Assembly: GCA_007120305.1 (NCBI GenBank)
Contig: SKNW01000029.1
Location: 1,706 to 65,705, forward strand
Source of the DNA: Gemmatimonadota bacterium
GTDB taxonomy: Bacteria; Gemmatimonadota; Gemmatimonadetes; Longimicrobiales; Gaopeijiaceae
DNA: 64,000 nucleotides
Direction of reading: 5' to 3'
Positions 5,647 to 53,647 of this stretch are shown one piece after another. Positions within the stretch are counted from its first letter, which is position 1. Every line of letters starts with the position of its first letter. The notes under the pieces are model-generated. The model was not told the origin of the DNA and made no database searches. It saw only the letters and a program-made list of their open reading frames with translations. The position numbers and the translations under genes were made by a program.

Positions 5647-7062
5647 TCAGGTGTCGCCTCCGTCCACGTCGTAGCGCCGAAGTTTGGTGTAGAGCGATTG
5701 TCGACTTACCCCCAGGATCTCTGCGGCGGCGGTGCGGTTGCCATCGGTCAGCTTGAGGGCGGACTCGATGAAGTGCGCCTCGACGATTCCCACGGTGTCC
5801 TGGACGAGCTGCTTCAGCGAAACCTTTCCCACCTGGTCGGTGAGCTGCTCCACCGCCCGGGAGAGGTCCCGGTGCCCGGAAAGGGCGCCCTCGGTCCAGA
5901 TGCGTCGGCTCACATTCCGGATCGTGACGCCGATGCAGGGGGGATCGGCGCCCTCGATTCCGGTGGCCGACAGCTCCACCTCCGACTCCATGTCCAGCGC
6001 CGAATTCAGCGTGGTGGGGAAGAGCCGGACCTCGCCGAACTTCTCCAGGTTGGTCAGGAGCACCGTCATGTCGGCTCCCGGACGACCGAGCCAGCGTCCG
6101 AGACTGAGGCCCGTCAGGTCCTCCTCGGCCGGCACCTGCACCAGGGTCCGGAAGGCACGGTTGGCCATGAGAACCCGGGCATCCCGGTCCGTGACCACGA
6201 AGGGGTCGGGACCGTACTCGAGGAGCCGGGTGGGGTTCAGGCCGGCCGGCGCCGGGGTTACATCCTGTGTGAGGCCCCGGATCTCCTGGAGGTGGACGAG
6301 CAGGATGCCGTCCCTCTCCTCGCGGATTACCGCGGCCTCGAGTCGCCAGCCGTCGCCGCTTCCCAGGTCCAGCCCCACCGTCTCGGCGCGGCCCCGATCC
6401 CGGACCCCCTCCAGGTGGCGGCGGACATCCTCGTGGGTGCGCTCGCTCATGGTGAGGTCATCGGGGAAGACCCGGCCGGTCAGCTTCCTGGGGGGGACAC
6501 CAAAAGCCTGTCCCGCGGCCCGATTCGCGTCGAGGATGCGGCGGGAGGGGGCATCCAGAACCAGGAGAGCCTCGGAGGAGCGCTGGAAGAGCAGGCGGTA
6601 CCGGGTCTCCATCTGCCGAAGGCGCCAGTAGTCCCGCTCCAGCGCCTGCTGGGCCTCCACGAGGCGGCGCTGCAGGTCGGAAAGGGACTGGAGATTCCGC
6701 CCGAGAATGAGAAATCCGGCGTTGTCATCCAGCAGGATCCCCGTGTACCCGATGGGGAAGTCGGCGCCTCCGGGGAGTGTCTGGTTGAGCTGGCGCGTTC
6801 GGGAGAGCCCGTGCTCGCGCGCATCATCCAGGAGCATCCCCACCTTGCTTCGGGTGTCGGGGAGGACCGTGTCGGCCCACATCTTTCCGACCCACTCCCG
6901 CAGGTTCTCCTCGATCAGCGAGGAATCCCTGTACACGTCCACGACCCGCCCGGACGGATCCAGGCGAAGGACCAGGTCGGCCGAGGCTCGCACGACGCGG
7001 TCGAGGACCGGCGCAGTGGTCCCCGTCAGGGGGGCTGTCGGGCTTTGAGAATTCCCGGTCAC
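5647..7062 (-). CDS. ppsR: Photosynthesis gene repressor PpsR/CrtJ (PAS domains plus C-terminal Fis-type HTH)
   Basis: 471 aa with a C-terminal HTH (NRTAAAEILGVSRQSLYTKLRRY). Sits between ppaA and bchG as in other PGCs. GTG start. Confidence 0.9.
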   Translation of the reverse strand: MTGNSQSPTAPLTGTTAPVLDRVVRASADLVLRLDPSGRVVDVYRDSSLIEENLREWVGKMWADTVLPDTRSKVGMLLDDAREHGLSRTRQLNQTLPGGADFPIGYTGILLDDNAGFLILGRNLQSLSDLQRRLVEAQQALERDYWRLRQMETRYRLLFQRSSEALLVLDAPSRRILDANRAAGQAFGVPPRKLTGRVFPDDLTMSERTHEDVRRHLEGVRDRGRAETVGLDLGSGDGWRLEAAVIREERDGILLVHLQEIRGLTQDVTPAPAGLNPTRLLEYGPDPFVVTDRDARVLMANRAFRTLVQVPAEEDLTGLSLGRWLGRPGADMTVLLTNLEKFGEVRLFPTTLNSALDMESEVELSATGIEGADPPCIGVTIRNVSRRIWTEGALSGHRDLSRAVEQLTDQVGKVSLKQLVQDTVGIVEAHFIESALKLTDGNRTAAAEILGVSRQSLYTKLRRYDVDGGDT

Positions 7063-16505: not shown

Positions 16506-17359
16506 TGGCCGAACTCGCGTCCCCCGCCCCGGCCGATCGGCCGGAGCGCATTCGCACCTACTTCGAGGGTCGGGCGGAGAACTGGATCCGTCTGACCTCG
16601 GACGCCCCGGTAAGCGGCGTTCGGGCCAGGGTGCGGGCGGGGCGCGAGACCATGGCCGGAACCCTGCTCGGGTGGCTGGAGTCACCGCCCGCGGCGGATT
16701 CTCTGGGTGCGGGTGCGGGTGCGGGTGTCGGTGCCGGTGTCGGTCTCGGCGCCGACCTCGACTCCGACGCCGGGGGGGGGATCCCCGGGGGGGAGCGCCG
16801 GGTGCTGGATGCCGGATGCGGACCGGGGGAGATCAGCCTGCGGCTCGCGGCCCGGGGATTCCGGGTGACGGGGATCGAGCTGGCGCCGTCGCTGGCCGAG
16901 GCGGCACGGGACCGCGTGCAGGCGGCGGGGATGGCGGATCGGGTGGAGATCCTCGAGGGCGATGCCACCCGCCCCGGTGACGGACCCTGGGACCACGTGG
17001 TCCTCATGGACGTCCTCTTCCACTATCCCCTGGCCGAGGCCGTGGAGGCCCTGGCCCGGCTGGCTCCGGTGGCCCGGCGGAGCGTGGTGTTCACGCTGGC
17101 CCCGCGGACCCCGCTTCTGGGAGCCCTGCGCACCGTGGGGGGGCTCTTCCCGCGACGGGACCGGGCGCCCACCCTCCACCCCGTACCCGTGCGCGCCTTC
17201 GTGAACCGGGTCCTGGCTCACCCCGGGTTCTCGGAGTGGGCCCGGGGCCGGGATCGCTTCGTGCGTTCCGGCGTCTACTTTTCCCACGCCGTGGAGCTGG
17301 TCCGGAACCCCGAGGCACGCGGGGATGCGGATGCGGAGCGGGGAGGCCCCCGCCCATGA
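16505..17359 (+). CDS. bchM: Mg-protoporphyrin IX O-methyltransferase
   Basis: SAM-binding motif (VLDAGCGPGE) at the bchL-bchM-lhaA position. Carries a Gly/Ala/Val insertion from hexanucleotide repeats. Confidence 0.85.
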
Positions 17360-18930
17360 CGGTGGATCTGAAGCGCGTGGTGAGGAACGACGCCGGCAGG
17401 GACGACGCGAAGGACGTCGCGGAGGACCACGTGAAGAGAGTCGCGGATCACGGCCCGGCGCAACGCGCGGCTCAACCTGCGGCTGCGCCCCCGAAGAGGT
17501 CGCTGGCGTCCCGTACGGCCGACATGCTGAACAGCCTGGGTACCCGGTACCTCCCGTTCGCCGACGCCGCTTCCGCTGAACTTCCCCTGGGGCGCCTGCT
17601 TCGCCTGGCCCTCTTTCAGGTCTCGGTGGGGATGGCGCTCACCCTCCTCGTGGGCACGCTCAACCGGGTCATGATTGTGGAACTGGGAGTGGCGGCGCTG
17701 GTTGTGTCGGCCATGATCGCCCTCCCCCTGCTCTTTGCCCCCTTCCGTGCGCTCATCGGGTTCCGGTCGGACGTCCACCGGTCGGCCTTCGGCTGGCGCC
17801 GGGTGCCCTATCTCTGGTTCGGCACGCTTCTGCAGTTCGGGGGATTCGCCATCATGCCCTTCGCCCTCCTCCTGCTGGGAGGTGACCACTCCGCGCCCAT
17901 GTGGGTCGGGACGGCGGGGGCGGCCCTGGCCTTCCTCCTGGTGGGGGCGGGGGCCCACACGGTGCAGACGGCAGGTCTCGCGCTGGCCACGGACCTGGCC
18001 AACCCGGAGCAGCGTCCCCGGGTCGTGGCCCTCCTCTACCTCTTTCTTCTGGCAGGAATGATCATCGGGGGCGTGGCCTATGCCGTCGTCCTGGCCAACT
18101 TCTCGCCCCTCCGCCTGATCCAGGTCATCCAGGGGGCGGCGGTGATCACCATCGTGCTCAACGGCGTGGCCCTCTGGAAGCAGGAGGCCCGGGATCGGAC
18201 CCGGGCGACCCGGCCGCCGGAAACCCTGCGGTTTCGGGACGCGTGGAGGGCCTTCACCCAGGGAGGCCGGGCGACCCGACTCCTGGTGGCCGTGGGTCTC
18301 GGGGCCGCCGGCTTCTCCATGCAGGACGTGCTCCTCGAGCCGTTCGGCGGGGAGGTCCTGGGGATGGGCGTGGGGGGCACGTCGCTCCTTACGGCCCTGA
18401 CCGCCGGCGGGGCGGTGGTGGCCTTTGCCCTGGCGGCCCGGATGCTCGAGCGGGGCGCCGATGCCTGCCGCCTGGCGGCCATGGGTGCCCTTGTGGGGGT
18501 GGGCGCGTTCGTGGCCGTGATCCTCTCCGGTGTCATGGGCTCGCCCCTGGCGCTCCAGATCGGCGCCGTCCTCATCGGGATCGGTGGCGGGTTCTTCCTG
18601 GTGGGGACCCTGACCGCGGCCATGGACCTGCACCAGGCCGAGAGCAACGGGCTCGCCATGGGCGCCTGGGGCGCCGTGCAGGCCACCTCCATGGGGGTGG
18701 CCGTCATCATCGGCGGGGTGATCCGCGATGGAGCGGCCATTCTCGCCGCGACGGGACGCCTGGGCCCTGGGTTCGAGGGGCCCACAGCTGGATACATGCT
18801 GGTGTTTCAACTGGAAATCGTGGCCCTCTTCCTGGCCATGGCCGTGCTGGGCCCCCTGGTGGCCTCCGGCCGGACGATTCCCGCAGGCCCCGAGCGACGC
18901 CGGTTCGGACTGGCGGAGCTTCCGGGGTGA
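17356..18930 (+). CDS. lhaA: LH1 assembly protein LhaA (PucC-family MFS)
   Basis: Contains RYLPFADAASAELPLGRLLRLALFQVSVGMA and is a polytopic protein. The ATGA-coupled start at 17356 is supported by a high-GC3 frame; an alternative ATG at 17524 would remove a roughly 56-aa charged N-terminal extension. Confidence 0.85.
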   Translation: MTVDLKRVVRNDAGRDDAKDVAEDHVKRVADHGPAQRAAQPAAAPPKRSLASRTADMLNSLGTRYLPFADAASAELPLGRLLRLALFQVSVGMALTLLVGTLNRVMIVELGVAALVVSAMIALPLLFAPFRALIGFRSDVHRSAFGWRRVPYLWFGTLLQFGGFAIMPFALLLLGGDHSAPMWVGTAGAALAFLLVGAGAHTVQTAGLALATDLANPEQRPRVVALLYLFLLAGMIIGGVAYAVVLANFSPLRLIQVIQGAAVITIVLNGVALWKQEARDRTRATRPPETLRFRDAWRAFTQGGRATRLLVAVGLGAAGFSMQDVLLEPFGGEVLGMGVGGTSLLTALTAGGAVVAFALAARMLERGADACRLAAMGALVGVGAFVAVILSGVMGSPLALQIGAVLIGIGGGFFLVGTLTAAMDLHQAESNGLAMGAWGAVQATSMGVAVIIGGVIRDGAAILAATGRLGPGFEGPTAGYMLVFQLEIVALFLAMAVLGPLVASGRTIPAGPERRRFGLAELPG

Positions 18931-18948
18931 GGCCATTCTCACCCCACC

Positions 18949-19239
18949 GTGATTCCCTCTGAAGGAGACCGTACCGTGGGATACTTCGACTTTGCCCAGA
19001 TCACCGTCTACCTGTTCTGGTTCTTCTTTGCCGGGCTGGTGATCTACCTCCGCCGGGAGGACAAGCGGGAGGGCTACCCCCTGGAGTCCGATCGGGCCAA
19101 CGTGACCGTGCAGGGATGGCCCGTCGTGCCCACCGAACCATCGGCACGCTCGACCCGCCTCAAGCATGCGAGTCTTGACGCCTCCGACCCCGCCAACTAT
19201 ATGCCTGAATCCCAGACCGACCAGAAGGAGGTTCGATGA
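18949..19239 (+). CDS. puhA: Reaction-centre H subunit, N-terminal transmembrane piece (separate ORF)
   Basis: Contains [35 protein letters not shown], the canonical PuhA TM helix and REGYPL motif. Likely start is GTG 18976, preceded by AAGGAG. The TGA stop at 19237-19239 overlaps the next ATG. Confidence 0.8.
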
Positions 19240-19766
19240 GCATCCCTGCCCGGCCCACCGCATCCCATCCCGGAGCGGCCCTGGAACCCACCGGCAACCC
19301 GATGAAGGACGGCATGGGCGCCGCCGCCTGGGCCACCGACCGGGCGGATCGTCCGGACCTGACCCACGACGGGCGCCCCCGGATCCAGCCCATGAGCAGG
19401 CTGAGCGGGTTCACCATCGAATCCCGGGATCCGGATCCCCGGGGAATGAAGGTGGTGGGCGCCGACGGCGGGGTGGCCGGGGTGGTCACCGACCTCTGGA
19501 TCGACCTGGCCGAGCCCCAGGTGCGCTTCATGACCATGGAGCTCCCCGACGGGACCGGATCGGTGCTGATCCCCAATGGGTTCGTGAAGATCAAGCGCGC
19601 CGCGGGGGAGGTCCGGGTGCAGGCGCTCTACGCGGAGCACTTCGCCGACATCCCGCGCCCGAAGGCGGCCGACCAGATCACACTCCTGGAAGAGGATCGG
19701 ATCTACGGCTACTTCGCCGGCGGCTATCGCTACGCGGATCCGTCTCGACTCGACCCCCTGTTCTGA
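19236..19766 (+). CDS. puhA: Reaction-centre H subunit, C-terminal cytoplasmic (PRC-barrel) piece (separate ORF)
   Basis: Contains [42 protein letters not shown] and [17 protein letters not shown]. This frame is closed by a TGA at 19206, so ATG 19236 is the only start. The SD sequence GAAGGAGG sits 5 nt upstream. Confidence 0.8.
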
Positions 19767-19767
19767 T

Positions 19768-20421
19768 ATGAGTACCCCGTCCGCACCGGGGACCCATTCG
19801 GACGAAGTTCGGGCTCGCATCACCGGAGTGGAGGAAGCCCTCCCCCCCGGGGAATCCCTCGTATGGGAGGGACAACCGGATGTGAAGACCCTGGCGTTCC
19901 GGGTCCTGTATCTCCGTGCCATTCTCGTCTACTGGGCGCTCGTCGCCGTCGGCTTCCTGGCCGCGGGTGCCCTGGGCGGTCGTGGGTCCGGCAGCCTTGC
20001 CGCCGACCTGGTCTGGCTCATGGTCGTGGCGGCTGCCGGTTCGGCCCTGATCTTCGGGTTGGCGGCAGCCATCCGTTCCAGCACCACCTACGCCCTGACG
20101 GACCGCCGCGTGGTGATCCGGATGGGGGTGGCCTTCCCCTCGGTGCTCAATCTTCCCCTTCACCAGATCGACGCCGTGGACGTCCGCGCGACGGGAAAAG
20201 ATCGGGAGGGCCGCGAGGTCGGTGACCTCGTGCTCACCCCCATCGGCGGCGAGCAGGTGGGATGGCTCTACCTCTGGCCCCACGTGAAACCCTGGTCCTG
20301 GCGCACCCCTGCGCCGGCACTTCGGGCCATCCCCGAGGCGGCGTACGTGGGGAAGCTGGTGGCCCGGCACGCGAAGGCACGTCTTGATCAGCTTCAGGGC
20401 GAACGCGAGGATACGGCATGA
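19768..20421 (+). CDS. puhB: Photosynthetic complex assembly protein PuhB
   Basis: 217 aa with two TM hairpins and a bPH-like C-terminus. Immediately follows puhA. Confidence 0.75.
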   Translation: MSTPSAPGTHSDEVRARITGVEEALPPGESLVWEGQPDVKTLAFRVLYLRAILVYWALVAVGFLAAGALGGRGSGSLAADLVWLMVVAAAGSALIFGLAAAIRSSTTYALTDRRVVIRMGVAFPSVLNLPLHQIDAVDVRATGKDREGREVGDLVLTPIGGEQVGWLYLWPHVKPWSWRTPAPALRAIPEAAYVGKLVARHAKARLDQLQGEREDTA

Positions 20422-20434
20422 TGGAGAATCCGAC

Positions 20435-20968
20435 ATGAGTGTCGTTCGCTTCGAGGGCGGGGATCTCGAGAAGGAGCTGATTCCGCCGGTTGCCATCAAG
20501 GCCACGGCTGCCTTCCTCGTCCTGGTGCTGATCCTGGCGGCGGTAGCCCGCCTGACCGGGGTCGGGGCGCTGGAGGACCTGTCCGACCGGACCCCGCTGG
20601 TGGAACGAACCCTGGCGTTCGTGGCCGCACCAGGCGATGGTCCCGTGGAACTCCGGGACGGGGACACGGGTGAACTGATCCAGCTTCTGGCCCCTGGCGA
20701 AGGTGGATTCCTGCGCGGAGCCGTCCGTCCCCTCTACCGGGAGCGGGAGCGGGCCGGGGGTGATCCGGCGGCACCGTGGCGTCTGACGCTCTGGTCCGAC
20801 GGGGCTCTGACCCTCACCGATCCCATGACCGGGATGGTGGTGGACCTCCATGCGTTCGGGCCCACGAACGCCGGAGCCTTTGCCGAGTTGCTTCCCCCTC
20901 CCCCTGCGCCTGCCGCGCCCCTTGCGGCTGACCTGCGATCCGTCTTCGAAGGAGTCGATTCCCCATGA
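20435..20968 (+). CDS. puhC: Photosynthetic complex assembly protein PuhC
   Basis: 177 aa from ATG 20435, with a single N-terminal TM helix (PVAIKATAAFLVLVLILAAVA) and a periplasmic domain. Positional match. Confidence 0.7.
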   Translation: MSVVRFEGGDLEKELIPPVAIKATAAFLVLVLILAAVARLTGVGALEDLSDRTPLVERTLAFVAAPGDGPVELRDGDTGELIQLLAPGEGGFLRGAVRPLYRERERAGGDPAAPWRLTLWSDGALTLTDPMTGMVVDLHAFGPTNAGAFAELLPPPPAPAAPLAADLRSVFEGVDSP

Positions 20969-21294
20969 CCCTGACCACATGGGCTGCCCTGGCGGCCCTG
21001 TTCGTCATCCTCGCGATCTGGTTCTTCTGGAAGCGCACCGAGCGGGTGCCCTGCCGGCTGGAGCTGGAGCGGACCCACGAGCACCTGCATGCCCACGTGG
21101 AACTCATGGGCTTCTTCCCCGAGCCCGGCGATTCGGTCCGGGTGGAGGACGACATCGTGACCATCGAGTATGGAACGACCGAGACCCGGGAAGCCGAGGC
21201 CGTGGTGACCCGGGCGAGCGCCCTCCGGCGGGCGTGGACGCGCTTCACCGGCCGCTTCGAATTCTACGAACTCTACGACGTGGGGTTCGAGTAA
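20965..21294 (+). CDS. Small conserved PGC membrane protein (the 'hyp' of the puhABC-hyp-acsF module)
   Basis: 109 aa with one N-terminal TM helix. ATGA-coupled to puhC and located directly upstream of acsF. Confidence 0.6.
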
Positions 21295-25858: not shown

Positions 25859-26275
25859 GGCGGGCTCTCGGGGCAGGGATGGACCCGTCCCAGGAGAACG
25901 AGCAGCACCGGGCAATCATGACAGCGCTCGGTCCGCCGGACATGAACGGCCAGGACGCCCGAAACCGGCGCTCCTGTCGCGAGGTGCTCGCGGAGCGTGT
26001 CCAGCGGAACGATGCGGGAGGGATCGTGGGCTCGACGGCCCGCGGTTCCTCCGGTGATGGGCGAGTGCAAGGTGCTTCTCCTCGGCCGCCATCACTGAAT
26101 CGAGCACTTCGGTGGCAGGGTGGAGGTCCAGAGGGGCCAGCGTGTCGGGAGACGCGCCGGCGGCAGGAACCGGCGCCTCCGAGGTGGCCGCACCTCCGCA
26201 TCCCGAAACGAGAAGAATGGCCGCGGGCAAGGGAACCGAACGTAGCGCTGTCAGGGGGGCGAGCCTTCCGGCCAC
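25795..26275 (-). pseudogene. Small lipoprotein gene with an apparent frame switch near 26070
   Basis: The GTG 26275 frame gives a lipoprotein signal (LPAAILLVSGC), then degenerates to Arg-rich low-GC3 sequence after about 26065. The adjacent frame (TTG 26070) has high GC3 from that point on. Confidence 0.35.
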
Positions 26276-26490
26276 GGAGCCAGCCGCTGGAACCAGGCGC
26301 TCGAGACGACGTCAGTCCTCCCTCCCGAGATCCACCCGATGGTGTCGGACGACACCGGCCATTCCTCGAGTGGCGAGGAGCAGTGCCGCCTTGCTGAAAC
26401 GTCTCCTCGTGGCTCCTGGCCCGTCACGGGTGCCTGGACCTGCCACACTCGGTCCGAGCGGCGCCTTCGCCCATTCCGGCGAAAATCCGC

Positions 26491-31244: not shown

Positions 31245-31433
31245 TCAGAACCCGGGGGGAAGCGGTGTCATGTCGACGACCGCGCCGGCTGTAGCTCCGT
31301 CTCCACCGTCAATCCAGTTGTACTTGTCGGTCGAGAGGAGGATGAAGTGGATGGTGAACGCCAGAACGCCCAGGAATGCGAAGAGGGCGATGAGGGTCCG
31401 CCTGGGATCAAAGATCATCCATATCCGATGCAT
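31245..31433 (-). CDS. pufA: Light-harvesting LH1 alpha polypeptide
   Basis: 62 aa from ATG 31433 (GGAG SD): [40 protein letters not shown]..., including the BChl-ligand His. The track ORF is an upstream-extended version. Confidence 0.88.
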
Positions 31434-31458: not shown

Positions 31459-31611
31459 TCAGCCCCAGGGACGCCACATCCAGGCGAGCACATGAGCGAC
31501 GACGGCGACGACCGTGAAGCCGATGAACGACATGAGGAAAACCCCATGGAATTCCTTGGCCTCGTTCTCGGTCAGCCCCGACATGCTCCCCGATCTTTCA
31601 TGTTGTGACAT
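31459..31611 (-). CDS. pufB: Light-harvesting LH1 beta polypeptide
   Basis: Hand-translated; below the track's size cut-off. Sequence [50 protein letters not shown] (50 aa). AGGAGG SD 5 nt upstream. Confidence 0.88.
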
Positions 31612-37184: not shown

Positions 37185-38597
37185 TCAGGCCACGCCGGTG
37201 ACCACGCTCGTCAGCACCGGGGAACGGGGTCGCGGGCTCCGGATCTTCCGGAACCCGGCTTCCCGGAGGAGTGCCCGGTACTCGGCGGGGGAGCGGGGCC
37301 TGCCCTGCCCCATGGCCAGGAGGTAGAGCGAGAAGTAGGCGGCGCCCACCGTCTCGGCTCCACGCGTTCCGGCCATGGGCTCGGCCACCACCACGGTGCC
37401 GCCAGGGGGGAGGGCCTCCCTGACCGAGCCAAGCAGGGCCCGGGTCTCGTGGTCGTCGTGATCGTGGAGGATCCGGACCAGGGTGATCACGTCGGCCCCT
37501 CGGGGGAGGGGATCCCGGAAGAAGTCTCCTCCGTTCAGGTGGAGGCGCGAAGGCGAAAAACGCTCGCTGAGCCGCTCCCGGGCGCGCGCGGCGACCGCCG
37601 GGAGGTCGAACAGACCGAGCTCCAGGCGGTGGTGGCGCAGCCCGACCTGTTCGAGGAAGGCGCCCTCCCCTCCCCCCACATCCAGGATCCGCCGATGCCG
37701 CTGGAAGGGGTAGGCATCGAGGATCTCGCGGGAGACCAGGGGCTGCGAGGCGGCCATGAGCGCCGAGTAGGGGCCGACCTGCTCCGAGGTGAGGTCCTTG
37801 GCCTCTGACGAGCGGGTGTACGCCCAGTATCCGTGAAGGAGACCCTTGTCCCCGGGGCCGTCGCGGAGCAGGGCCACCGGATCGGCCAGGTCGTGGTAGA
37901 AGAGGACGTTGTGCTCCACCATCCGGGCCAGCGCCTCGTTCCCCACGAGGGGCGCTCCCATGGCGCCGAGGGCGATCCGGCCGCTTCGGGTCCGACGCAC
38001 CAGCCCCAGGGCCGTGGCCGATCCCAGGAGCCGCTCCAGACGGTCAAGGGGTAGCCCGCAGGCGTCGGCCAGCTCCGCCGGGGCCATGGGGCCCCGTGAG
38101 AGCCGGGTGAAGAGGTCCAGGCGAACGGCGGCCAGTACGGTCTGGGAATACACGAACCCCGCGCACAGATCGAACACCCGGCGGGACCGCGAGAGGGCAA
38201 TGGGCCGCGTGAGTGGAAAGGCCGAGGCCCAGCGCTGAAAGCCCGGAGAGGCCAGGATGCGGTCCCGGAGGGCCAGGAGCCGCTCTCCCACCGAGAGGGG
38301 GGGGACGGGATGCCCTGGCTCGGCGGAGGTCGTGGCGGGGGCGTCGGATGCCGGCGCCTTCGAGGCCTCCGAATTCGAGGCCGCAAAATTCGCGGTCGTG
38401 CCATGCGGGGCCGTGCCATGCGGGGCCGTGCCATTCGGGGCCGCGCCATTCGAGGCCGTGCCATTCGAGGCCGCCGCGTTGGACGATGCCGCCGCGTTGG
38501 ACGAGGCCGCCGCCTTGGGCGAGGCCGCCGCCTTGGGCAGGGAGGACGAGGTGGATTCGGGTGAAGAGGTCCCGAAGCTCGAAGACGGATCAGCCAT
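37185..38597 (-). CDS. crtF: Hydroxyneurosporene/demethylspheroidene O-methyltransferase with a low-complexity N-terminal extension
   Basis: O-MT dimerisation and SAM domains (ILDVGGGEGAFL) at the crtF-bchC position. ATG 38597 overlaps the bchD stop by 8 nt. Confidence 0.85.
   Translation of the reverse strand: MADPSSSFGTSSPESTSSSLPKAAASPKAAASSNAAASSNAAASNGTASNGAAPNGTAPHGTAPHGTTANFAASNSEASKAPASDAPATTSAEPGHPVPPLSVGERLLALRDRILASPGFQRWASAFPLTRPIALSRSRRVFDLCAGFVYSQTVLAAVRLDLFTRLSRGPMAPAELADACGLPLDRLERLLGSATALGLVRRTRSGRIALGAMGAPLVGNEALARMVEHNVLFYHDLADPVALLRDGPGDKGLLHGYWAYTRSSEAKDLTSEQVGPYSALMAASQPLVSREILDAYPFQRHRRILDVGGGEGAFLEQVGLRHHRLELGLFDLPAVAARARERLSERFSPSRLHLNGGDFFRDPLPRGADVITLVRILHDHDDHETRALLGSVREALPPGGTVVVAEPMAGTRGAETVGAAYFSLYLLAMGQGRPRSPAEYRALLREAGFRKIRSPRPRSPVLTSVVTGVA
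38396..38537. repeat. In-frame 15-bp and 18-bp tandem repeats inside the crtF 5' region
   Basis: Units such as GCCGTGCCATGCGGG / GCCGTGCCATTCGAG (five copies), then GAGGCCGCCGCCTTGGGC-type 18-mers. They encode ASN/GTAP-rich pentapeptide repeats. Confidence 0.9.
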
Positions 38598-40590
38598 GAC
38601 GTCGCCTCGCGGGAGACGGAGGTGCGGAGTCGCCCGACGGCGAGTCGGCGAGGGCACGCCGGATCCGTCGGGCATCGGCAAAGGGGAGGTGGCGGGCTTC
38701 GGCGCCCATCCGCCGGGCCAGCTCCTCCAGGAAAGGTTCGGGGCGAAGCCCGGTGTCCAGCACGCGGACGTCCACCGCGCGAAGGCCGATGGCGGTACCC
38801 ACCGCCAGCGCGTCCTCCCGGGCACGCGGGCGTCCCCCTCGCCCGGCGGCATCCACGTTGGGACGCCCGTCGGTCAGGAGGACCACGCGCGGGGCCACGC
38901 CCTCCCGGAGGGCCTGTTCGGCCAGGCGGAGTGCTTCGGCGAGTCCCAGCGCCAGCGGCGTGCCGCCCCCCCCGGGGAGTCCGCGCAGGAGTCGCTTGGC
39001 CCGGGTCAACGACCGGGTCGGCGGGAGAAGGAGACGGGCTTCCCGGTCCCGGAAGACCACGAGGCACACCTCCTCCCGGGCGCGGTAGCTCTCGGCGAGG
39101 AGGAGCTCCACGGCGCCCTTCACCTCGCCCAGTCGGCGGAGCGCCTGGGAGCCGGAGGCATCCACGGCGAAGATGGTTCGCCGGGCCGCCGGCCGGACCC
39201 GGCGCTGGATGTGCAGGTCGCCGGGGACCACGTGGAGGCGGGATCGATCCGTGGTCGGCTCCTCGGCCGAGGGGGGGACCTCGGCCGAGGGGGGGACGTC
39301 GGCGCGGGGTGTGTCCTCGGTCCGGGCCTTCTCTGCCTCTCGCGCTGCCTCTCGCCGGCGAAGCGCCTGCCACGGGGCCGCCGCCCGAAGGGTGGCCGGA
39401 AGATCGACGCGCCGACCTCGGCCGGGGGCGCCCCGATCGGCCCCGACCCTTCGGCCTCGTTCGTGAGCTTCCACCGGGGTGCCCCCCTGTCCCCGTCCCG
39501 CGCCCCGGACGCCGGCCCCCTTTCCTCGACGACGCAGCGCCGAGGCATCGTCGTCCGGGAGGAGCGCGAGGGTGGCCGCCACGAGGCGATCCGGGAGGGC
39601 GGAGGACGTCGGAGGCTCGGATGAGGAGGGCTTCCCTTCGCCCAGGTCATCGGGATCAGAGGCGGACTCCGGGGCCGGCGCCGGGTTGGCGTCCGGGGGC
39701 GTTTCCGTGGATGCTGCGGGATCCGGAGGTGGTGGGGGCGCCGCCTCATCGTCGGGGGAGACCGCGTCCTCGTCGACATCCGGGGGATTCGCCTCCGCCT
39801 CGTCCGTTTCGCCGTCGGCTTCGCCCGGCGGAGCCGGAAGCGGAACGCCCCGGGGCGCGAGCACCAGGGCCGCCGCAAGCCAGACATCTTCCGCCTCCAC
39901 CTGGGGGCTGTCCCGGAGGGCGGCGATCCCCCGAGCCGCCCGCAGGGCAAAGGCCATCGGGCGCAGGGAGTCCGGCCCCCCCCGAAGGCTCATCTCGGCC
40001 AGGGCGCGCACGGCGGAGGCGGGAACCTGGACGTGGGCGATCCGGGCCCTGGCCTCTGCCACCTCTTCGGGGTCCGGGAGGCGGTCGGGCGTCCAGCGCG
40101 CAGGGAGGGTCAGGAGAAAGGCCACCCGGTCGCGGAGGGCCTCCGGGGATCCGGGCTCGTCCTCCCTGGCCTCGTCCAGCGCCACCACCCCCACCCGGGC
40201 CGCCAGGTCGGCCGACAGCCCCTCCCGCTCGACGCGGAGGCGCCCCCGATCCAGCACCTCCAGCAGGACCGCCGTGACTTCCGGGTGGATCCGCTCCGCC
40301 GACGGGAGGATGAGGATCCCGCCGTCGGCTTCGGCGGGGATCCCCGGCTGAAGGACGCGGCGACCGGTCCGAAGCGTTCCGGCCAGGTCGATCCCGCCGG
40401 AGAGGCGGTCCGGCGTGACCCCCACGGGGACCCGGCGCCACGGGGATCCCGGTGGCAGACTCCCCCGAAGCAATCGGCACCAGCCCTCCACGGCGGGACC
40501 CCCGGGACCCAGCAGGACGGCGCCCCCGAGCCCCTCCGGGTCGGCCGCCACCAGAAGGGCGGCCAGGGTATGAGGATCCGACGGGAGCAC
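38590..40590 (-). CDS. bchD: Magnesium chelatase D subunit
   Basis: AAA-like N-domain, acidic Pro-rich linker and C-terminal vWA domain (IFAVDASGS...LLTDGRPN). GTG 40590 lies 1 nt after the bchI stop; the longer track ORF overlaps bchI. Confidence 0.88.
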   Translation of the reverse strand: MLPSDPHTLAALLVAADPEGLGGAVLLGPGGPAVEGWCRLLRGSLPPGSPWRRVPVGVTPDRLSGGIDLAGTLRTGRRVLQPGIPAEADGGILILPSAERIHPEVTAVLLEVLDRGRLRVEREGLSADLAARVGVVALDEAREDEPGSPEALRDRVAFLLTLPARWTPDRLPDPEEVAEARARIAHVQVPASAVRALAEMSLRGGPDSLRPMAFALRAARGIAALRDSPQVEAEDVWLAAALVLAPRGVPLPAPPGEADGETDEAEANPPDVDEDAVSPDDEAAPPPPPDPAASTETPPDANPAPAPESASDPDDLGEGKPSSSEPPTSSALPDRLVAATLALLPDDDASALRRRGKGAGVRGAGRGQGGTPVEAHERGRRVGADRGAPGRGRRVDLPATLRAAAPWQALRRREAAREAEKARTEDTPRADVPPSAEVPPSAEEPTTDRSRLHVVPGDLHIQRRVRPAARRTIFAVDASGSQALRRLGEVKGAVELLLAESYRAREEVCLVVFRDREARLLLPPTRSLTRAKRLLRGLPGGGGTPLALGLAEALRLAEQALREGVAPRVVLLTDGRPNVDAAGRGGRPRAREDALAVGTAIGLRAVDVRVLDTGLRPEPFLEELARRMGAEARHLPFADARRIRRALADSPSGDSAPPSPARRRHG

Positions 40591-40591
40591 G

Positions 40592-41815
40592 TCAGGCCCG
40601 CGTCGTGGGGTGAGCGGCGGACGACGGTTCGTCTTCGACCAGGCCCATCTCCCGGAGCGCACGGTCGATGCGCTCTGTGGATCCACTTTCGTCCAGGGGA
40701 TCCCGGCGCAGCCGGTGCCGAAGAGAGGGCGGTGCCACGGCGGCCAGGTGTTCGGGCGTCACCTCGCTCGCCTCCTCCAGCGCCGCCAGGGCCCGGGCCG
40801 CCCTCAGGAGGGTGAGTTCGCCTCGGAGACCGTCCACGCCCAGGGCCACGCAGAGACCGGAGGCGCGTCGGAGAAAGGCATCGCTCACCTCCACCTCCCC
40901 CAGCCGGGCCCGGGCCCGCTCCAGACCCTTGCGGACCCGGCCATCCTGCGAGGCCCAGCGACGCTGGAAGCTGTCGGCATCCCGGTCGTAGGCGTCCCGG
41001 CGGCGGAGGACCTCGATACGGTCGTCGATGTTCCTCGGGGTCCCCACCTCCACCGAGAGCCCGAAGCGGTCCAGGAGCTGGGGCCTCAGGTCCCCCTCCT
41101 CGGGATTTCCGCTTCCCACGAGAACGAATCGGGCCGGATGGCGAATGGAGATGCCTTCGCGCTCCACCACGTTCTCGCCCGAGGCGGCCACGTCCAGGAG
41201 GAGGTCCACCAGGTGGTCGTCCAGGAGGTTGACCTCGTCGATGTAGAGGAATCCGCGGTTCGCCCGGGCCAGGAGCCCCGGTTCAAAGGACCGGGTGCCG
41301 TCGAGGAGGGCCCGCTCCAGGTCCAGGGTTCCCACGACCCGGTCCTCGGTCGCCCCCAGGGGGAGGTCCACCATGGGAACCGGCCGCCGCAGCACAGGAA
41401 GCGATCCGGACCCCGCGGCATTCCCCGGGGCCCCCGTGCAGCTGCGGCAGAGCCCCGCCGGACCTGCCCCCTCGGACGAGCGGGCAGGAGCGCATCCGTA
41501 GGGGCATCCGTCCACCACGTCGATGGGGGGGAGGAGGGCAGCCAGCGCACGCACGGCGGTGGACTTCCCGGTGCCCCGGTCGCCGAAGACCAGGACCCCC
41601 CCGAGGGTGGGGTCCACGGCCGCCAGGCGGAGGGCGAGCTTCATTTCTTCCTGTCCCACGATGGCCGAAAACGGAAACGGAGGAGTCACGACGGGGAGGC
41701 TCGAAAAGGGAGTGGGGAGATGGAGCGGCGGCGGGGGGTGGAACGGGGGATTCGGCCCGGGAGGGTACTGCTCCCGAGCGCTGTCCAGAATAGGGAGGGA
41801 CCGGTGCGCGGGCAA
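40592..41815 (-). CDS. bchI: Magnesium chelatase I subunit (AAA+ ATPase)
   Basis: Contains FPFSAIVGQEEMKLALRLAAVDPTLGGVLVFGDRGTGKST. The start is uncertain: TTG 41815 gives a 40-aa Pro-rich leader with high GC3; GTG 41689 is the short alternative. Confidence 0.9.
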   Translation of the reverse strand: MPAHRSLPILDSAREQYPPGPNPPFHPPPPLHLPTPFSSLPVVTPPFPFSAIVGQEEMKLALRLAAVDPTLGGVLVFGDRGTGKSTAVRALAALLPPIDVVDGCPYGCAPARSSEGAGPAGLCRSCTGAPGNAAGSGSLPVLRRPVPMVDLPLGATEDRVVGTLDLERALLDGTRSFEPGLLARANRGFLYIDEVNLLDDHLVDLLLDVAASGENVVEREGISIRHPARFVLVGSGNPEEGDLRPQLLDRFGLSVEVGTPRNIDDRIEVLRRRDAYDRDADSFQRRWASQDGRVRKGLERARARLGEVEVSDAFLRRASGLCVALGVDGLRGELTLLRAARALAALEEASEVTPEHLAAVAPPSLRHRLRRDPLDESGSTERIDRALREMGLVEDEPSSAAHPTTRA

Positions 41816-41944
41816 CGTGGCTCTGGGGCGGAACCCCCTGCGCGGAGGGAGGTACTTTCCCGCCCCCGCCTGATCCTCCCCCAGATCCCCTCCTGCAACT
41901 TCCCCTTCCGCATCCTCGATTCCACCAGCGAGAGTCCTGTCATC

Positions 41945-43540
41945 ATGTCGTCCAGCGCAAAGGTCAACGGTACGAATCCCAAGCGGGCCGTCATCGTCGG
42001 AAGCGGGTTCGGCGGTCTGGCCCTGGCCATCCGTCTTCAGGCGGCCGGCCTCCAGGTCACCCTCCTCGAGAAGCGGGAGAAGATCGGAGGGCGCGCCTAC
42101 CAGCTCAAGGATCAGGGCTACACCTTCGACATGGGGCCGTCACTGATCACGGCTCCCCACATCATCGAATCGGTGTTCCAGGCGGCGGGCCGGAAACTCT
42201 CGGACTACGTGGAGCTCATGCCGCTGGACCCCTACTACCGGATCTACTTCCACGACGGGACGCAGATCGACTATGTGGGGGATCCGGACCGGATGAAGGC
42301 CCAGATGGCGACCTTCAACGCCGGGGATGCCGAGCGTTTCGACGACTTCATGAAGAAGGCCCGGCCCATCTATGATTCCGTCATCGGAGACCGGCTGGGG
42401 TCCAAGTCGTTCGGGGATCTGAAGACCATGCTGGGCTTCATTCCCGACCTGATCCGGCTGGAGGCGTTCCTTCCGGTGACCATGCTGGTGAATCGGTACT
42501 TCAAGGACTTCCGGCACCGCTTCCTCTATTCCTTCCACCCCCTCTTCGTGGGAGGCAACCCCTTCTACACGCCGGCGGTCTACCTCATGATCCCCTACCT
42601 GGAGCGCAGGGGTGGGGTCTGGTTCTCTCGTGGAGGGATGTACAGCCTGGTGGAGGCCATGGGGACGCTCTTCACCGAGCTTGGAGGGGAGATCCGGACC
42701 GAGCACGAGGTGACCCGCATCGGGACCGACGCCCAGCGCCGGGTGACCCACGTGGAAGCCGGGGGGAGCCGGTTCGAGGCCGATCTCGTGGTCTCCAACG
42801 GCGATGTGGGCCATACCTACCGGGACCTGGTGGATGCCTCGGCCCGGAAGAAGTGGACGGACCGGAAGGTGGAGAAGCTGGACTATGCCATGTCCTGCCT
42901 CCTTCTCTACCTGGGCACGAAGAAGCAGTACCCGGCGCTGGAGCACCACACGCTGATCCTCACCGAGCGCTACAAGGAGCTCATCGCCGACATCTTCGAC
43001 CGCAAGATCGTCCCCGACGACTTCTCCATGTACCTCCACGTCCCCACCCGCTCGGACCCGTCCATGGCACCGGAAGGGTGCGAGAGCATGTACGTGCTGG
43101 TGCCGGTGGCGAACCTCCGGGGCGGGCAGGACTGGGAGAAGCTCCGGGAGCCCTTTGCCCACAAGGTCATCGACTTCCTGGAGGAATGGGGGATGGAGGG
43201 TCTTCGCGAGAACCTGGAGGTGCTCCACATCATGGACCCCACCGATTTCCGGGACGACCTCAACTCCCTGCATGGAAACGCCTTCGCCATCGTTCCCAAG
43301 TTCATGCAGACCGCGTATTTCCGGCCCCACAACCGGAGCGAGGACGTGAAGGGACTCTACCTGGTGGGAGCGGGAACCCACCCGGGCGCCGGCGTCCCCG
43401 GTGTGTTCCTCTCCGCCGAGACCACCTACGGGTGCATCGCGAAGGACCTGGGGCTCCCCGACCAGTGGAACTGGGACGAGCCCGGCCGGGTGGAGTGGGA
43501 CGAGCTGGAGGGGGTCCACCAGGCGGCGGCCCGGATCTGA
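41945..43540 (+). CDS. crtI: Phytoene desaturase
   Basis: ATG 41945; contains KRAVIVGSGFGGLALAIRLQAAGLQVTLLEKREKIGGRAY and the C-terminal motif GAGTHPGAGVPGV. The upstream 445 codons of the 976-aa track ORF are antisense to bchI. Confidence 0.92.
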   Translation: MSSSAKVNGTNPKRAVIVGSGFGGLALAIRLQAAGLQVTLLEKREKIGGRAYQLKDQGYTFDMGPSLITAPHIIESVFQAAGRKLSDYVELMPLDPYYRIYFHDGTQIDYVGDPDRMKAQMATFNAGDAERFDDFMKKARPIYDSVIGDRLGSKSFGDLKTMLGFIPDLIRLEAFLPVTMLVNRYFKDFRHRFLYSFHPLFVGGNPFYTPAVYLMIPYLERRGGVWFSRGGMYSLVEAMGTLFTELGGEIRTEHEVTRIGTDAQRRVTHVEAGGSRFEADLVVSNGDVGHTYRDLVDASARKKWTDRKVEKLDYAMSCLLLYLGTKKQYPALEHHTLILTERYKELIADIFDRKIVPDDFSMYLHVPTRSDPSMAPEGCESMYVLVPVANLRGGQDWEKLREPFAHKVIDFLEEWGMEGLRENLEVLHIMDPTDFRDDLNSLHGNAFAIVPKFMQTAYFRPHNRSEDVKGLYLVGAGTHPGAGVPGVFLSAETTYGCIAKDLGLPDQWNWDEPGRVEWDELEGVHQAAARI

Positions 43541-51083: not shown

Positions 51084-51274
51084 CCGGGGCCAGCCTCTCC
51101 CGGTTGCATGCCAGCGCGGAGGAGGTTGCCCCGGCCCATGTGCCGCGCCAGCTTCAGGGGGAATCCGGGGCCGTCGAATCGACCTCGACGGCCTCGGACC
51201 TCCCGACCGCATCGGACCTCTCCACCGGAGCGAACTCCTCGCTCCTTTCGCCCACCCCGTCTTCCCCGTCGCCC

Positions 51275-53647
51275 ATGCCTCCCCGTCCGCGCCTTGCCCT
51301 GGTGGCCACCCTTCCCGCGCTCGCATTTTTCGCGGGTGCGCTCCCCTTCGCCCCTCTGGGTCCCACGTGGGCGGCGGCACAGTCCGGTCCGGATCCCCTC
51401 ACGGCGGCGGATTACCAGCGGGCCGAGGCCTTCATGGCTCAGAACCTGGCCACCCGGTTGTACCGGGCCGACGTGAGCCCCACCTGGACCGGCGAGGACC
51501 GGTTCTGGTACCGGACCCGGATTGCCGGGGGGTTCGAGTTCGTGGCGGTGGATGCAGCGCGGGGAACCCGGGCTCGGGCCTTCGATCACGAGGCCGTCTC
51601 CGCGGCCCTCTCGAGGGCCACCGGGGGAAGCTTCGAGGCCCTTCGCCTCCCCTTCACCTCCTTCACGTGGGCCGACGGGGGTTCGGCCATCGACGTCCAG
51701 GTCCAGGGCGGCCACTGGCGGTGCGACATCGACGGAACCCGGTGCACGGTCCAGGATCGCCCGCAGGCGGGCCCGTCGGGGATCACCTCGCCCGATGGCC
51801 GCTTCGTGGCCTTTCGGCGTGACCACAACCTGTGGATCCACGACCGGGACACGGGCGAGGAGCGGGCCCTTACCACCGACGGGGTGGACCGCCACGGGTA
51901 TGCCACGAACTCCCAGGGGTGGAGCCGGAGCAACCAGCCCATCCTCCTCTGGTCGCCCGACTCCCGGATGATCGCCACCTTCCGGCTCGACGAGCGGGGC
52001 GTGGAGGAGATGCACCTCCTGCGTACGGCCGAGCCCCGTCCCGAACTCGAGTCATGGCCCTATGCGCTCCCCTCCGACTCCATCGTCCCCATGGTGGAAC
52101 GGGTGGTCATTCACATCCAGGACGCCGCCGGTGCTCCGACCGCACGGGTCGTTCCCCTCGCCACGCCGCCGGACCATCAGCGCAGTTCTTCCTGCTGCGG
52201 GATGACCCGGGGCCAGGTGTGGGCTGACGTGGAATGGAGCCCTGATGGGGGAATGCTGGCCTTCGTCTCCGTGTCGCGGGACTACCGCACGGCCACCTTC
52301 CGGGTGGCCGATCCCGCGTCGGGTCAGGTCCGGACCGTGCTCTCCGAGTCCCATCCGAAGTTCTTCGAATCCCATGCCGGAGAACGCGGTCTCCCCAACT
52401 GGCGCCTCCTGGCCGAAACCGGGGAGTTCCTCTGGTTCTCGCAGCGGGATGGATGGGGGCATCTCTTCCTCTACGACCTGGCTTCCGGAGAGATGAAGGG
52501 CCGGGTGACCGGAGGGGACTGGAACGTCCTGGATGTGCAGCGGGTGGACGCAGGCGAGCGGACGATCCTCTTCACAGGGGTGGGACGGGAAGGCGGGCGG
52601 GATCCCTACCTGGCGCACCTCTACCGTGTCCGCTTCGACGGGTCGGGGCTCACCCTGCTGACCCCCGAGGAGGCGAACCACGAGATTTCCCTTTCCCCGT
52701 CGGGCGCCTGGTTCGTGGACCGGGCCTCCACCTTCCAGGACCCCCCGGTCACGACCCTGCGTCGCACCCGGGACGGGAGCGTCGTCCGGGTCCTGGAAGA
52801 GGCGGACGCCTCGGAGCTCGAGGCCCTGGGCTGGCGGGCTCCCGAGCCCTTCCGGGCCAAGGCCCGGGACGGTGTCACCGACGTCTACGGGATCCTGATC
52901 CTGCCCTCGACCTTCGACCCCGAGAAGCGCTACCCCATCATCAACGCCATCTATCCCGGTCCCCAGTCGGGGAGCGTGGGGACCCGGTCCTTCTCGGTGA
53001 GTCGCCGGGGGCAGGCCCACGCCCTGGCGGAGCTGGGTTTCGTGGTGGTCCTCGTCGATGCCATGGGAACCCCGTTCCGGTCCAAGTCCTTCCACACCGC
53101 CTACTACGGCGACATGGGAGACAACGGGCTTCCGGACCACATTTCGGCCATGCGGGAGCTGGCCACGCGCCACGCGTGGATCGACCTGGACCGGGTCGGG
53201 ATCTTCGGCCACTCCGGAGGCGGCTATGCCACGGCGGCGGCGCTTCTCCGTCACCCCGACTTCTTCCACGTGGGGGTGGCCGGGGCCGGGAACCATGACA
53301 ATGCGGGCTACACCTTCTACTGGGGGGAGAAGTACCACGGCCCCTTCGAACGCTTCGAGGAGGGCGGCCATTCCTACGAGGTGCAGGCCAACCACCTCCA
53401 GGCCGAGAACCTCGCGGGGAAGCTGCTCCTCTCCTACGGCACGATGGACGCCAACGTGCACCCGAACACCACACTTCTCCTCATCGACCGGCTCATCGCC
53501 GCGAACCGGGATTTCGACGTCCTGGTCATGCCCAACCGGGGGCATGGCTACGCCGGCGAAAGCTACGCCGTGCGCCGGACGTGGGACTACTTCGTCCGTC
53601 ACCTCCTCCACCGGGAACCCCCGTCGGGCTACCGGATCGGGGGATGA
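51275..53647 (+). CDS. S9 family peptidase (DPP-IV-like N-domain plus prolyl oligopeptidase catalytic domain)
   Basis: Signal peptide from ATG 51275. Catalytic Ser motif GIFGHSGGGY and C-terminal ...MPNRGHG. Confidence 0.8.
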   Translation: MPPRPRLALVATLPALAFFAGALPFAPLGPTWAAAQSGPDPLTAADYQRAEAFMAQNLATRLYRADVSPTWTGEDRFWYRTRIAGGFEFVAVDAARGTRARAFDHEAVSAALSRATGGSFEALRLPFTSFTWADGGSAIDVQVQGGHWRCDIDGTRCTVQDRPQAGPSGITSPDGRFVAFRRDHNLWIHDRDTGEERALTTDGVDRHGYATNSQGWSRSNQPILLWSPDSRMIATFRLDERGVEEMHLLRTAEPRPELESWPYALPSDSIVPMVERVVIHIQDAAGAPTARVVPLATPPDHQRSSSCCGMTRGQVWADVEWSPDGGMLAFVSVSRDYRTATFRVADPASGQVRTVLSESHPKFFESHAGERGLPNWRLLAETGEFLWFSQRDGWGHLFLYDLASGEMKGRVTGGDWNVLDVQRVDAGERTILFTGVGREGGRDPYLAHLYRVRFDGSGLTLLTPEEANHEISLSPSGAWFVDRASTFQDPPVTTLRRTRDGSVVRVLEEADASELEALGWRAPEPFRAKARDGVTDVYGILILPSTFDPEKRYPIINAIYPGPQSGSVGTRSFSVSRRGQAHALAELGFVVVLVDAMGTPFRSKSFHTAYYGDMGDNGLPDHISAMRELATRHAWIDLDRVGIFGHSGGGYATAAALLRHPDFFHVGVAGAGNHDNAGYTFYWGEKYHGPFERFEEGGHSYEVQANHLQAENLAGKLLLSYGTMDANVHPNTTLLLIDRLIAANRDFDVLVMPNRGHGYAGESYAVRRTWDYFVRHLLHREPPSGYRIGG

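Follow-up and report, generated by a model that had tools for sequence, protein, structure and literature searches.

The locus considered here raises the question of whether a reaction center (RC) H subunit is made as two separate polypeptides in this organism, or whether the two ORFs found in place of the usual single puhA gene reflect an erroneous, decaying or recoded version of it. The initial annotation of the 64-kb window (the whole stretch of DNA that was analyzed) had described two ORFs in different frames, one of 87-96 aa bearing the transmembrane (TM) helix and the REGYPL motif and one of 176 aa bearing the PRC barrel, a description with which both the ORF listing and the Pfam domain assignments agree. 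As detailed below, these ORFs, puhA1 and puhA2, very probably make RC H as two polypeptides in an uncultured Gemmatimonadales phototroph, in the manner of the RC-dLH complex of Gemmatimonas.

The first gene, puhA1 (18976..19239, plus strand), encodes an 87-aa RC-Ht protein that comprises the TM helix, the REGYPL motif and a tail of about 40 residues. The ORF ends in a TGA at 19237-19239 and can be read as 96 aa from a GTG at 18949 or as 87 aa from a GTG at 18976. The latter is the likely start, because a Shine-Dalgarno-like GAAGGAG, read from the sequence (18961..18967, plus strand), lies 8 nt 5' of it, because its product (MGYFDFAQI...) aligns with the solved Ht chains from residue 1, and because gene callers settled on 87 aa in six related assemblies; the alternative GTG at 18949 was rejected for want of a suitably spaced Shine-Dalgarno sequence. 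The second gene, puhA2 (19236..19766, plus strand; stop codon TGA 19764-19766), encodes a 176-aa RC-Hc protein with the end of the PRCH domain (PTGNPM) and the PRC-barrel cytoplasmic domain. Its frame is -1 relative to that of puhA1 and is closed upstream by a TGA (19206..19208, plus strand), which leaves the ATG at 19236 as its sole possible start. The two genes meet in an ATGA (19236..19239, plus strand), in which the ATG of puhA2 (19236-19238) overlaps the TGA of puhA1, and a Shine-Dalgarno sequence for puhA2, GAAGGAGG (19224..19231, plus strand), lies within the final puhA1 codons (..K-E-V-R). This is the arrangement expected of a coupled gene pair, with the stop of the first gene overlapping the start of the second and the Shine-Dalgarno sequence of the second contained in the first. 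Both the stop-start overlap and the closing TGA at 19206 had been noted in the initial annotation and are read directly in the sequence; the Shine-Dalgarno sequence that it placed 5 nt before the second ATG is likewise present, although the spacer is of 4 nt (ttcg). Codon-position GC content indicates that puhA1 (GC3 0.82, GC2 0.43) and puhA2 (GC3 0.89, GC2 0.51) are both coding. Overlapping alternative-frame and antisense ORFs at 19166-19771 (plus strand), 19197-19922 (minus strand) and 17275-19263 (minus strand) are without a coding GC3/GC2 pattern and were set aside as artefacts of base composition at 70% GC.

Profile searches show a single domain model cut between both ORFs, as the Pfam PRCH model (134 positions) is matched from position 5 to 72 by puhA1 (E 1e-20) and from 83 to 133 by puhA2 (E 4e-15), the latter also containing the PRC barrel (E 2e-8). 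Among structures in the PDB, the puhA1 product matches the 'reaction centre Ht' chains of 60-67 aa (9H19_H, the best, E 1.7e-17; 9H22_H; 7O0U_H1, E 4e-16) and aligns with residues 8-47 of full-length H (E 2e-17). The puhA2 product matches the stand-alone 'RC-Hc' chain 7O0U_H2 (181 aa; entries 7O0U-7O0X) with E 2e-44 and the Hc chains of 9H19 and 9H22, as well as residues 86-258 of the full-length H proteins of Allochromatium and Thermochromatium (259 aa; E 5e-49 to 4e-45); matches of this strength to solved chains are enough to establish the fold. The comparison with Gemmatimonas and proteobacterial H subunits that had been proposed as a check thus pairs each ORF with an Ht or Hc chain and places the two in line along full-length PuhA. 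The boundary itself is also shared: residues 7-175 of the window Hc align with 8-180 of 7O0U_H2, such that the N-termini fall within one residue of each other, residues 3-175 align with 3-178 of 9H19_K, and 27 stand-alone Hc proteins line up with one another at their N-termini. When concatenated, Ht and Hc amount to 263 aa and are colinear from end to end with full-length PuhA (252-261 aa). Nothing is missing at the junction in this alignment, and the linker is instead longer by 3 + 6 + 4 residues; the earlier statement that the summed length and the motif spacing match an unsplit PuhA therefore stands as regards colinearity and is approximate as regards length, given these 13 residues. The locus hence has the PRCH domain and PRC barrel homologous to those of canonical RC-H, but instead of an uninterrupted reading frame of some 250-260 aa it has stops in both frames and a change of frame at 19236.

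The two genes are embedded in the series bchNBHLM-lhaA-puhA1-puhA2-puhB-puhC (PF27124)-orf109-acsF, whose order is identical in relatives. Immediately 5' of puhA1 lies lhaA (17236..18930, plus strand), which encodes a PucC-family LH1 assembly protein (Pfam PUCC, E 2e-131); its true start is probably downstream of 17236, because the ORF overlaps bchM, and in relatives the gene is called at 487-521 aa. On the other side, the ATG of a puhB-like gene with a bPH_2 domain identified by Pfam (19768..20421, plus strand) lies 1 nt past the puhA2 stop. The 109-aa ORF between puhC and acsF (20965-21294, plus strand) has an N-terminal TM helix and no Pfam match, and its length and position are kept in all six related contigs (L081-L086). 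The first part of the window carries a polyprenyl synthase (crtE-like) gene, bchP, a pucC-like gene, bchG, ppsR, bchN, bchB, bchH, bchL, bchM and lhaA, and further on the minus strand carries puhE (DUF3623), pufC, pufM, pufL, pufA, pufB, bchZ, bchY, bchC and crtF, with carotenoid desaturases on both strands beyond crtF and ordinary chromosomal genes from about 45 kb onward. The photosynthesis cluster is complete in the window, with pufBALMC, bchCXYZ, bchNBHLM, puhBC, acsF and the crt genes all intact. Two ORFs of the window are longer than their recognizable domains: in a 976-aa ORF (40610-43540, plus strand) the amine-oxidase/desaturase domain is confined to residues 457-938, and in the crtF-like 555-aa ORF (37185-38852, minus strand) the O-methyltransferase domain is confined to residues 224-535. 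Either both ORFs have been called too long in a genome of high GC content, or the proteins have extended N-termini or are fusions.

As judged by similarity, the host is a member of the Gemmatimonadota, namely an uncultured Gemmatimonadales phototroph. The best genome matches for the locus are Gemmatimonadales MAGs (76-80%), and the only named close matches of a DPP-IV peptidase encoded at 51104-53647 are proteins from Gemmatimonadales MAGs, one of them 79% identical, which suggests that the host backbone is Gemmatimonadales-like too, besides the cluster.

To place this arrangement in a phyletic context, a profile of stand-alone Hc proteins was run against one genome per GTDB species, which yielded 538 confirmed puhA loci, and the best 80 of these were examined. 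Among these 80, puhA is split in all 26 loci labelled as Gemmatimonadota and in one unclassified MAG (L078), whereas it is an unsplit single-frame gene in each of the 53 loci assigned to other phyla, which come from Pseudomonadota, a Myxococcota MAG and a 'Spirochaetales' MAG. The Gemmatimonadota loci include representatives of Gemmatimonadales, Gemmatimonadaceae, Longimicrobiales, Longimicrobium and Roseisolibacter sp. H3M3-2, and metagenomes contain about 80 clusters of stand-alone Hc proteins of 170-184 aa. The suggestion in the initial annotation that the split is a lineage marker is borne out by this distribution (26/26 Gemmatimonadota loci versus 0/53 from other phyla among the best 80 of 538), and agrees with the literature (PMC12817894). 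Two of the full-length unsplit genes lie on contigs binned outside Pseudomonadota, in a Myxococcota MAG (L048, JANQSB010000623) and a 'Spirochaetales' MAG (L064, CAZYOL010000295); the former case may be genuine, and the latter may be a binning error.

The junction between the two genes takes several forms. With the window counted as one of 28 loci, a 4-nt ATGA/GTGA overlap is seen in 15, a 1-nt TGATG overlap in seven, an in-frame TGA-nnn-ATG in three and a spacer of 19-24 nt in three, making a stop/start overlap the commonest type (22/28). A GGAG/GAGG-type motif occurs just 5' of the second start in most of the 27 related loci and is weakest in L009; because in the overlapping types it sits in the last puhA1 codons (GAGGAG = Glu-Glu), Ht often ends in an acidic stretch (..EEAR, ..KEEN, ..EEDR, ..KEVR). 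Across the phylum Ht ranges from 64 to 162 aa and Hc is constant at 169-188 aa, the extra length of Ht being a low-complexity Pro/Ala/acidic tail that, where long, looks disordered. In the three in-frame loci, all from Gemmatimonadota MAGs (L046 5965-5973, L069 5965-5973 and L080 5191-5199), puhA1 and puhA2 are separated by a TGA, one codon and the ATG, and stop-codon readthrough would yield full-length H; their Hc N-terminus (MKxVKDIS.PIRPxGDGMGENIGPGAW) is unlike that of other loci. One of the spacer-type loci (L028, NZ_JARGEK010000014.1, 5745-6495) comes from a cultured isolate, Roseisolibacter sp. H3M3-2, with a puhA1 of 66 aa, a puhA2 of 176 aa and a 19-nt spacer, and this organism may be a further cultivable phototroph of the phylum. 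One JGI contig of 32.6 kb encodes a 215-aa 'hypothetical protein' (P0036) that shares 91% identity with the window Hc across only 69% of Hc, and that may represent a variant junction or a frameshifted relative.

Could the two ORFs of the window nevertheless derive from a normal single puhA through a 1-nt sequencing or assembly indel? The only argument for this is a general one, namely how often frameshift errors are to be expected in assemblies of high GC content (about 70% GC in the window), and we regard such an artefact as extremely improbable. Metagenome proteins of exactly 176 aa are 91-93% identical to the puhA2 product, and on six contigs of 91-92% relatives, drawn from six samples and three sources (ENA ERZ23498388; Logan SRR16631312 and SRR16631310; JGI 3300078543, 3300078352 and 3300078496), an 87-aa PRCH ORF overlaps a 176-aa ORF by 4 nt in every instance, with the junction aaggaggttcgATGA. 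The same pair of ORFs has therefore come out of six independent assemblies made from different samples with different pipelines; moreover, split genes are present in 27 further species-level genomes, and start codon, Shine-Dalgarno sequence and stop all fall exactly at the junction. Nor does the locus have the look of a pseudogene that is decaying as its lineage gives up phototrophy: genes in decay usually betray themselves by frameshifts, but there is nothing more specific in favor of this account, whose probability we likewise consider negligible. Nei-Gojobori comparisons of the window with eleven relatives give dN/dS values of 0-0.25 for the TM part of Ht, 0.09-0.27 for the Ht tail and 0.13-0.32 for Hc; purifying selection acts on both ORFs, the tail that directly precedes the junction included. 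Against decay also speak the intactness of the remaining cluster, lhaA included, and the fact that the homologous split subunit works in Gemmatimonas (PMC8849296). The identical junction in six assemblies, the dN/dS range on both of its sides and a split point that is the same as in the solved Hc chains bear out the earlier proposal of a clean split in the linker as opposed to decay. A different possibility is that the ORFs are real but are joined in translation by programmed -1 ribosomal frameshifting within 19209-19236, which would produce full-length H, alone or alongside Ht. The geometry is permissive, in that the Hc frame is -1 to that of Ht and stays open over the 27 nt ahead of the Ht stop, and a ribosome slipping by -1 in this stretch would make a colinear fusion of 263 aa. 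However, the overlap contains no slippery heptamer of the form X XXY YYZ, and the junctions of other lineages, where the genes overlap by 1 nt, have an in-frame stop and a 3-nt spacer, or lie 19-24 nt apart in other frames, share no common recoding signal. In every lineage the second ORF has its own ATG or GTG, mostly with a clear Shine-Dalgarno-like motif, and two separate chains have been found in Gemmatimonas by mass spectrometry and cryo-EM (PMC8849296, PMC12817894). Frameshifting is hence very unlikely, and separate translation of the two genes is the reading that we adopt.

How often the split arose is a question on which individual genes differ. In a neighbor-joining tree of LhaA (436 columns, 69 taxa) all split loci are set apart from all unsplit ones with a bootstrap of 94/100. 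BchM gives the same separation in its best tree, though weakly supported (31/100), and the monophyly of the split loci is recovered in 19/100 replicates with Hc alone and in 4/100 with PuhB alone; in a neighbor-joining tree of Hc with BLOSUM distances the split loci do not form one group. Multiple origins within Gemmatimonadota, for example one each in the ATGA/TGATG, the spacer (L028, L078 and L051) and the in-frame-stop (L046, L069 and L080) clades under host-specific selection for a two-piece H, would be in keeping with the low support from Hc, BchM and PuhB, with the way in which three structurally distinct junction classes track sequence clades, and with the placement of L046, L069 and L080 among full-length sequences in one run of the Hc-only tree. 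Yet LhaA unites all split loci, all of them are split at the same position in the linker, and a single split followed by remodelling of the junction is the simpler account, so that we hold repeated origins to be unlikely, if less remote than the possibilities considered above. The most likely scenario appears to be that the split arose once, after the photosynthesis gene cluster had entered Gemmatimonadota, and that the junction was later remodelled by lineage; as the Hc-alone and PuhB-alone trees are without support, it is mainly LhaA together with taxonomy that argues for this single origin.

These observations suggest how the two genes might work. puhA1 and puhA2 would be expressed from one operon, lhaA-puhA1-puhA2-puhB-puhC, and a ribosome ending puhA1 at its TGA would sit on the puhA2 ATG, with the strong Shine-Dalgarno sequence in the puhA1 codons that it has just read. 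Given the ATGA overlap and this Shine-Dalgarno sequence inside the end of puhA1, the two genes are probably translationally coupled, with Hc being made by termination-reinitiation at about 1:1 with Ht. Ht (87 aa) would supply the single membrane-spanning helix beside the L/M core along with an extended tail, and Hc (176 aa) the PRC barrel that caps this core on its cytoplasmic side. By analogy with the Gemmatimonas structures, we infer that Ht and Hc assemble non-covalently in the position that one-piece PuhA occupies in purple bacteria.

The antenna genes of the window bear on the wider architecture of the complex. pufB (31459-31611, minus strand) and pufA (31245-31433, minus strand) are both present, the latter with LH1-alpha/PufA1 chains as its best PDB matches, and a gap of 88 nt separates pufA from pufL. 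There is no membrane-like ORF between bchZ and pufB, and a second alpha gene, pufA2, was not detected in the 64-kb window with phmmer searches using PufA/PufB or with a screen for hydrophobic small ORFs. An ORF at 26254-26490 (minus strand) with a weak phmmer match (E 2.1) was rejected as a PufA candidate, its translation being Arg/Ser-rich and non-membrane. PufA2, which the Gemmatimonas and Pseudogemmatithrix clusters carry for the outer ring, is only 20-27% identical to proteobacterial PufA (PMC12817894). This lineage may accordingly possess a single-ring RC-LH1, or its pufA2 may be located elsewhere. The window clade keeps the whole linker as an Ht tail of about 40 residues, which is conserved and under selection. 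We tentatively entertain, as a possibility that we would not favor at present, a split H that operates in a single-ring RC-LH1 with the full linker retained as this selected tail. If this were true, the split of H would predate, and be independent of, the double-ring architecture; it would not have come from loss of a joining segment; and the ATGA-coupled long-tail form would be nearer to the ancestral state than the truncated form of Gemmatimonas known from structures.

That Gemmatimonadota make a two-piece H was already settled, and the understanding of how the reaction center works is unchanged by this locus. What is mildly new is that the split extends to all Gemmatimonadota loci retrieved among the best 80 of 538, including those of Longimicrobiales-labelled MAGs; also mildly new are the predominance of the overlapping junction, the occurrence of the spacer type in the Gemmatimonas-like L028 and L078, the retention of the linker, and the single pufA in the window. 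Its presence in every Gemmatimonadota puhA locus of that set makes the split a dependable marker for assigning metagenomic fragments of photosynthesis clusters to this phylum. For annotation, puhA of Gemmatimonadota should be entered as two genes, and should be neither labelled a frameshifted pseudogene nor missed.

The precedent for this organization is the H subunit of Gemmatimonas phototrophica, which Qian et al. 2022 (PMC8849296) described as consisting of two polypeptides, Ht of 7.7 kDa and Hc of 19.9 kDa; their ORFs, of 204 and 546 bp, adjoin lhaA and were named puhA1 and puhA2. Both polypeptides were detected by mass spectrometry and have cryo-EM density, and the gene had been missed by the NCBI pipeline in that species (PMC8849296). 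Gardiner et al. 2025 (PMC12817894) confirmed the split in the cryo-EM structure of G. groenlandica, noted it in Pseudogemmatithrix spongiicola and called it 'another modification specific to Gemmatimonadota'. Separate Ht and Hc chains are correspondingly deposited in the PDB for G. phototrophica (7O0U-7O0X; in 7O0U, H1 has 67 aa and H2 181 aa) and G. groenlandica (9H19/9H22), and a full-text literature search for puhA1/puhA2 returned nothing relevant beyond these two papers. The Ht/Hc pair that the initial annotation named from the G. phototrophica RC-dLH structure is thus the one seen in the 7O0U chains and in PMC8849296, and its fallback, a new RC architecture, is needless given what cryo-EM and mass spectrometry had already established in Gemmatimonas. 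The window locus is a further example of the known split H of Gemmatimonadota, from an uncultured Gemmatimonadales relative, and no new architecture.

The resemblance to G. phototrophica encompasses the two ORFs adjoining lhaA in a photosynthesis cluster, an Ht with the TM helix and the REGYPL motif, an Hc with the PRC barrel, membership in the same phylum, and an Hc that begins at the same linker position (residue 7 in the window corresponds to residue 8 of 7O0U H2). In contrast, the window Hc is only about half identical to its counterpart (154 bits over 169 residues), the window Ht exceeds that of G. phototrophica by 20 aa and has a tail conserved in its clade, and the summed length is 263 aa versus 248 aa; further, the Gemmatimonas-like loci L028 and L078 have a 19-nt spacer in place of the ATGA overlap of the window. 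The authors of the G. phototrophica study suggested that a missing six-residue joining region may explain the split (PMC8849296). This does not apply to the window, where Ht and Hc together give 263 aa and the linker is full, and loss of the joining segment as a general cause of the split appears weakened, since this lineage has kept the entire linker and even lengthened it. G. groenlandica and P. spongiicola have the same two-piece H, and the G. groenlandica Ht (9H19) is the best PDB match of the first window ORF, but both species also carry pufA2 for an outer LHh ring, whereas the window shows one pufA only. Finally, the PuhA proteins of purple bacteria such as Allochromatium tepidum (7VRJ_H) and Thermochromatium tepidum (3WMM_H), each of 259 aa, are colinear with Ht plus Hc of the window, and differ from them in being encoded by one ORF and forming one chain where the window has two ORFs.
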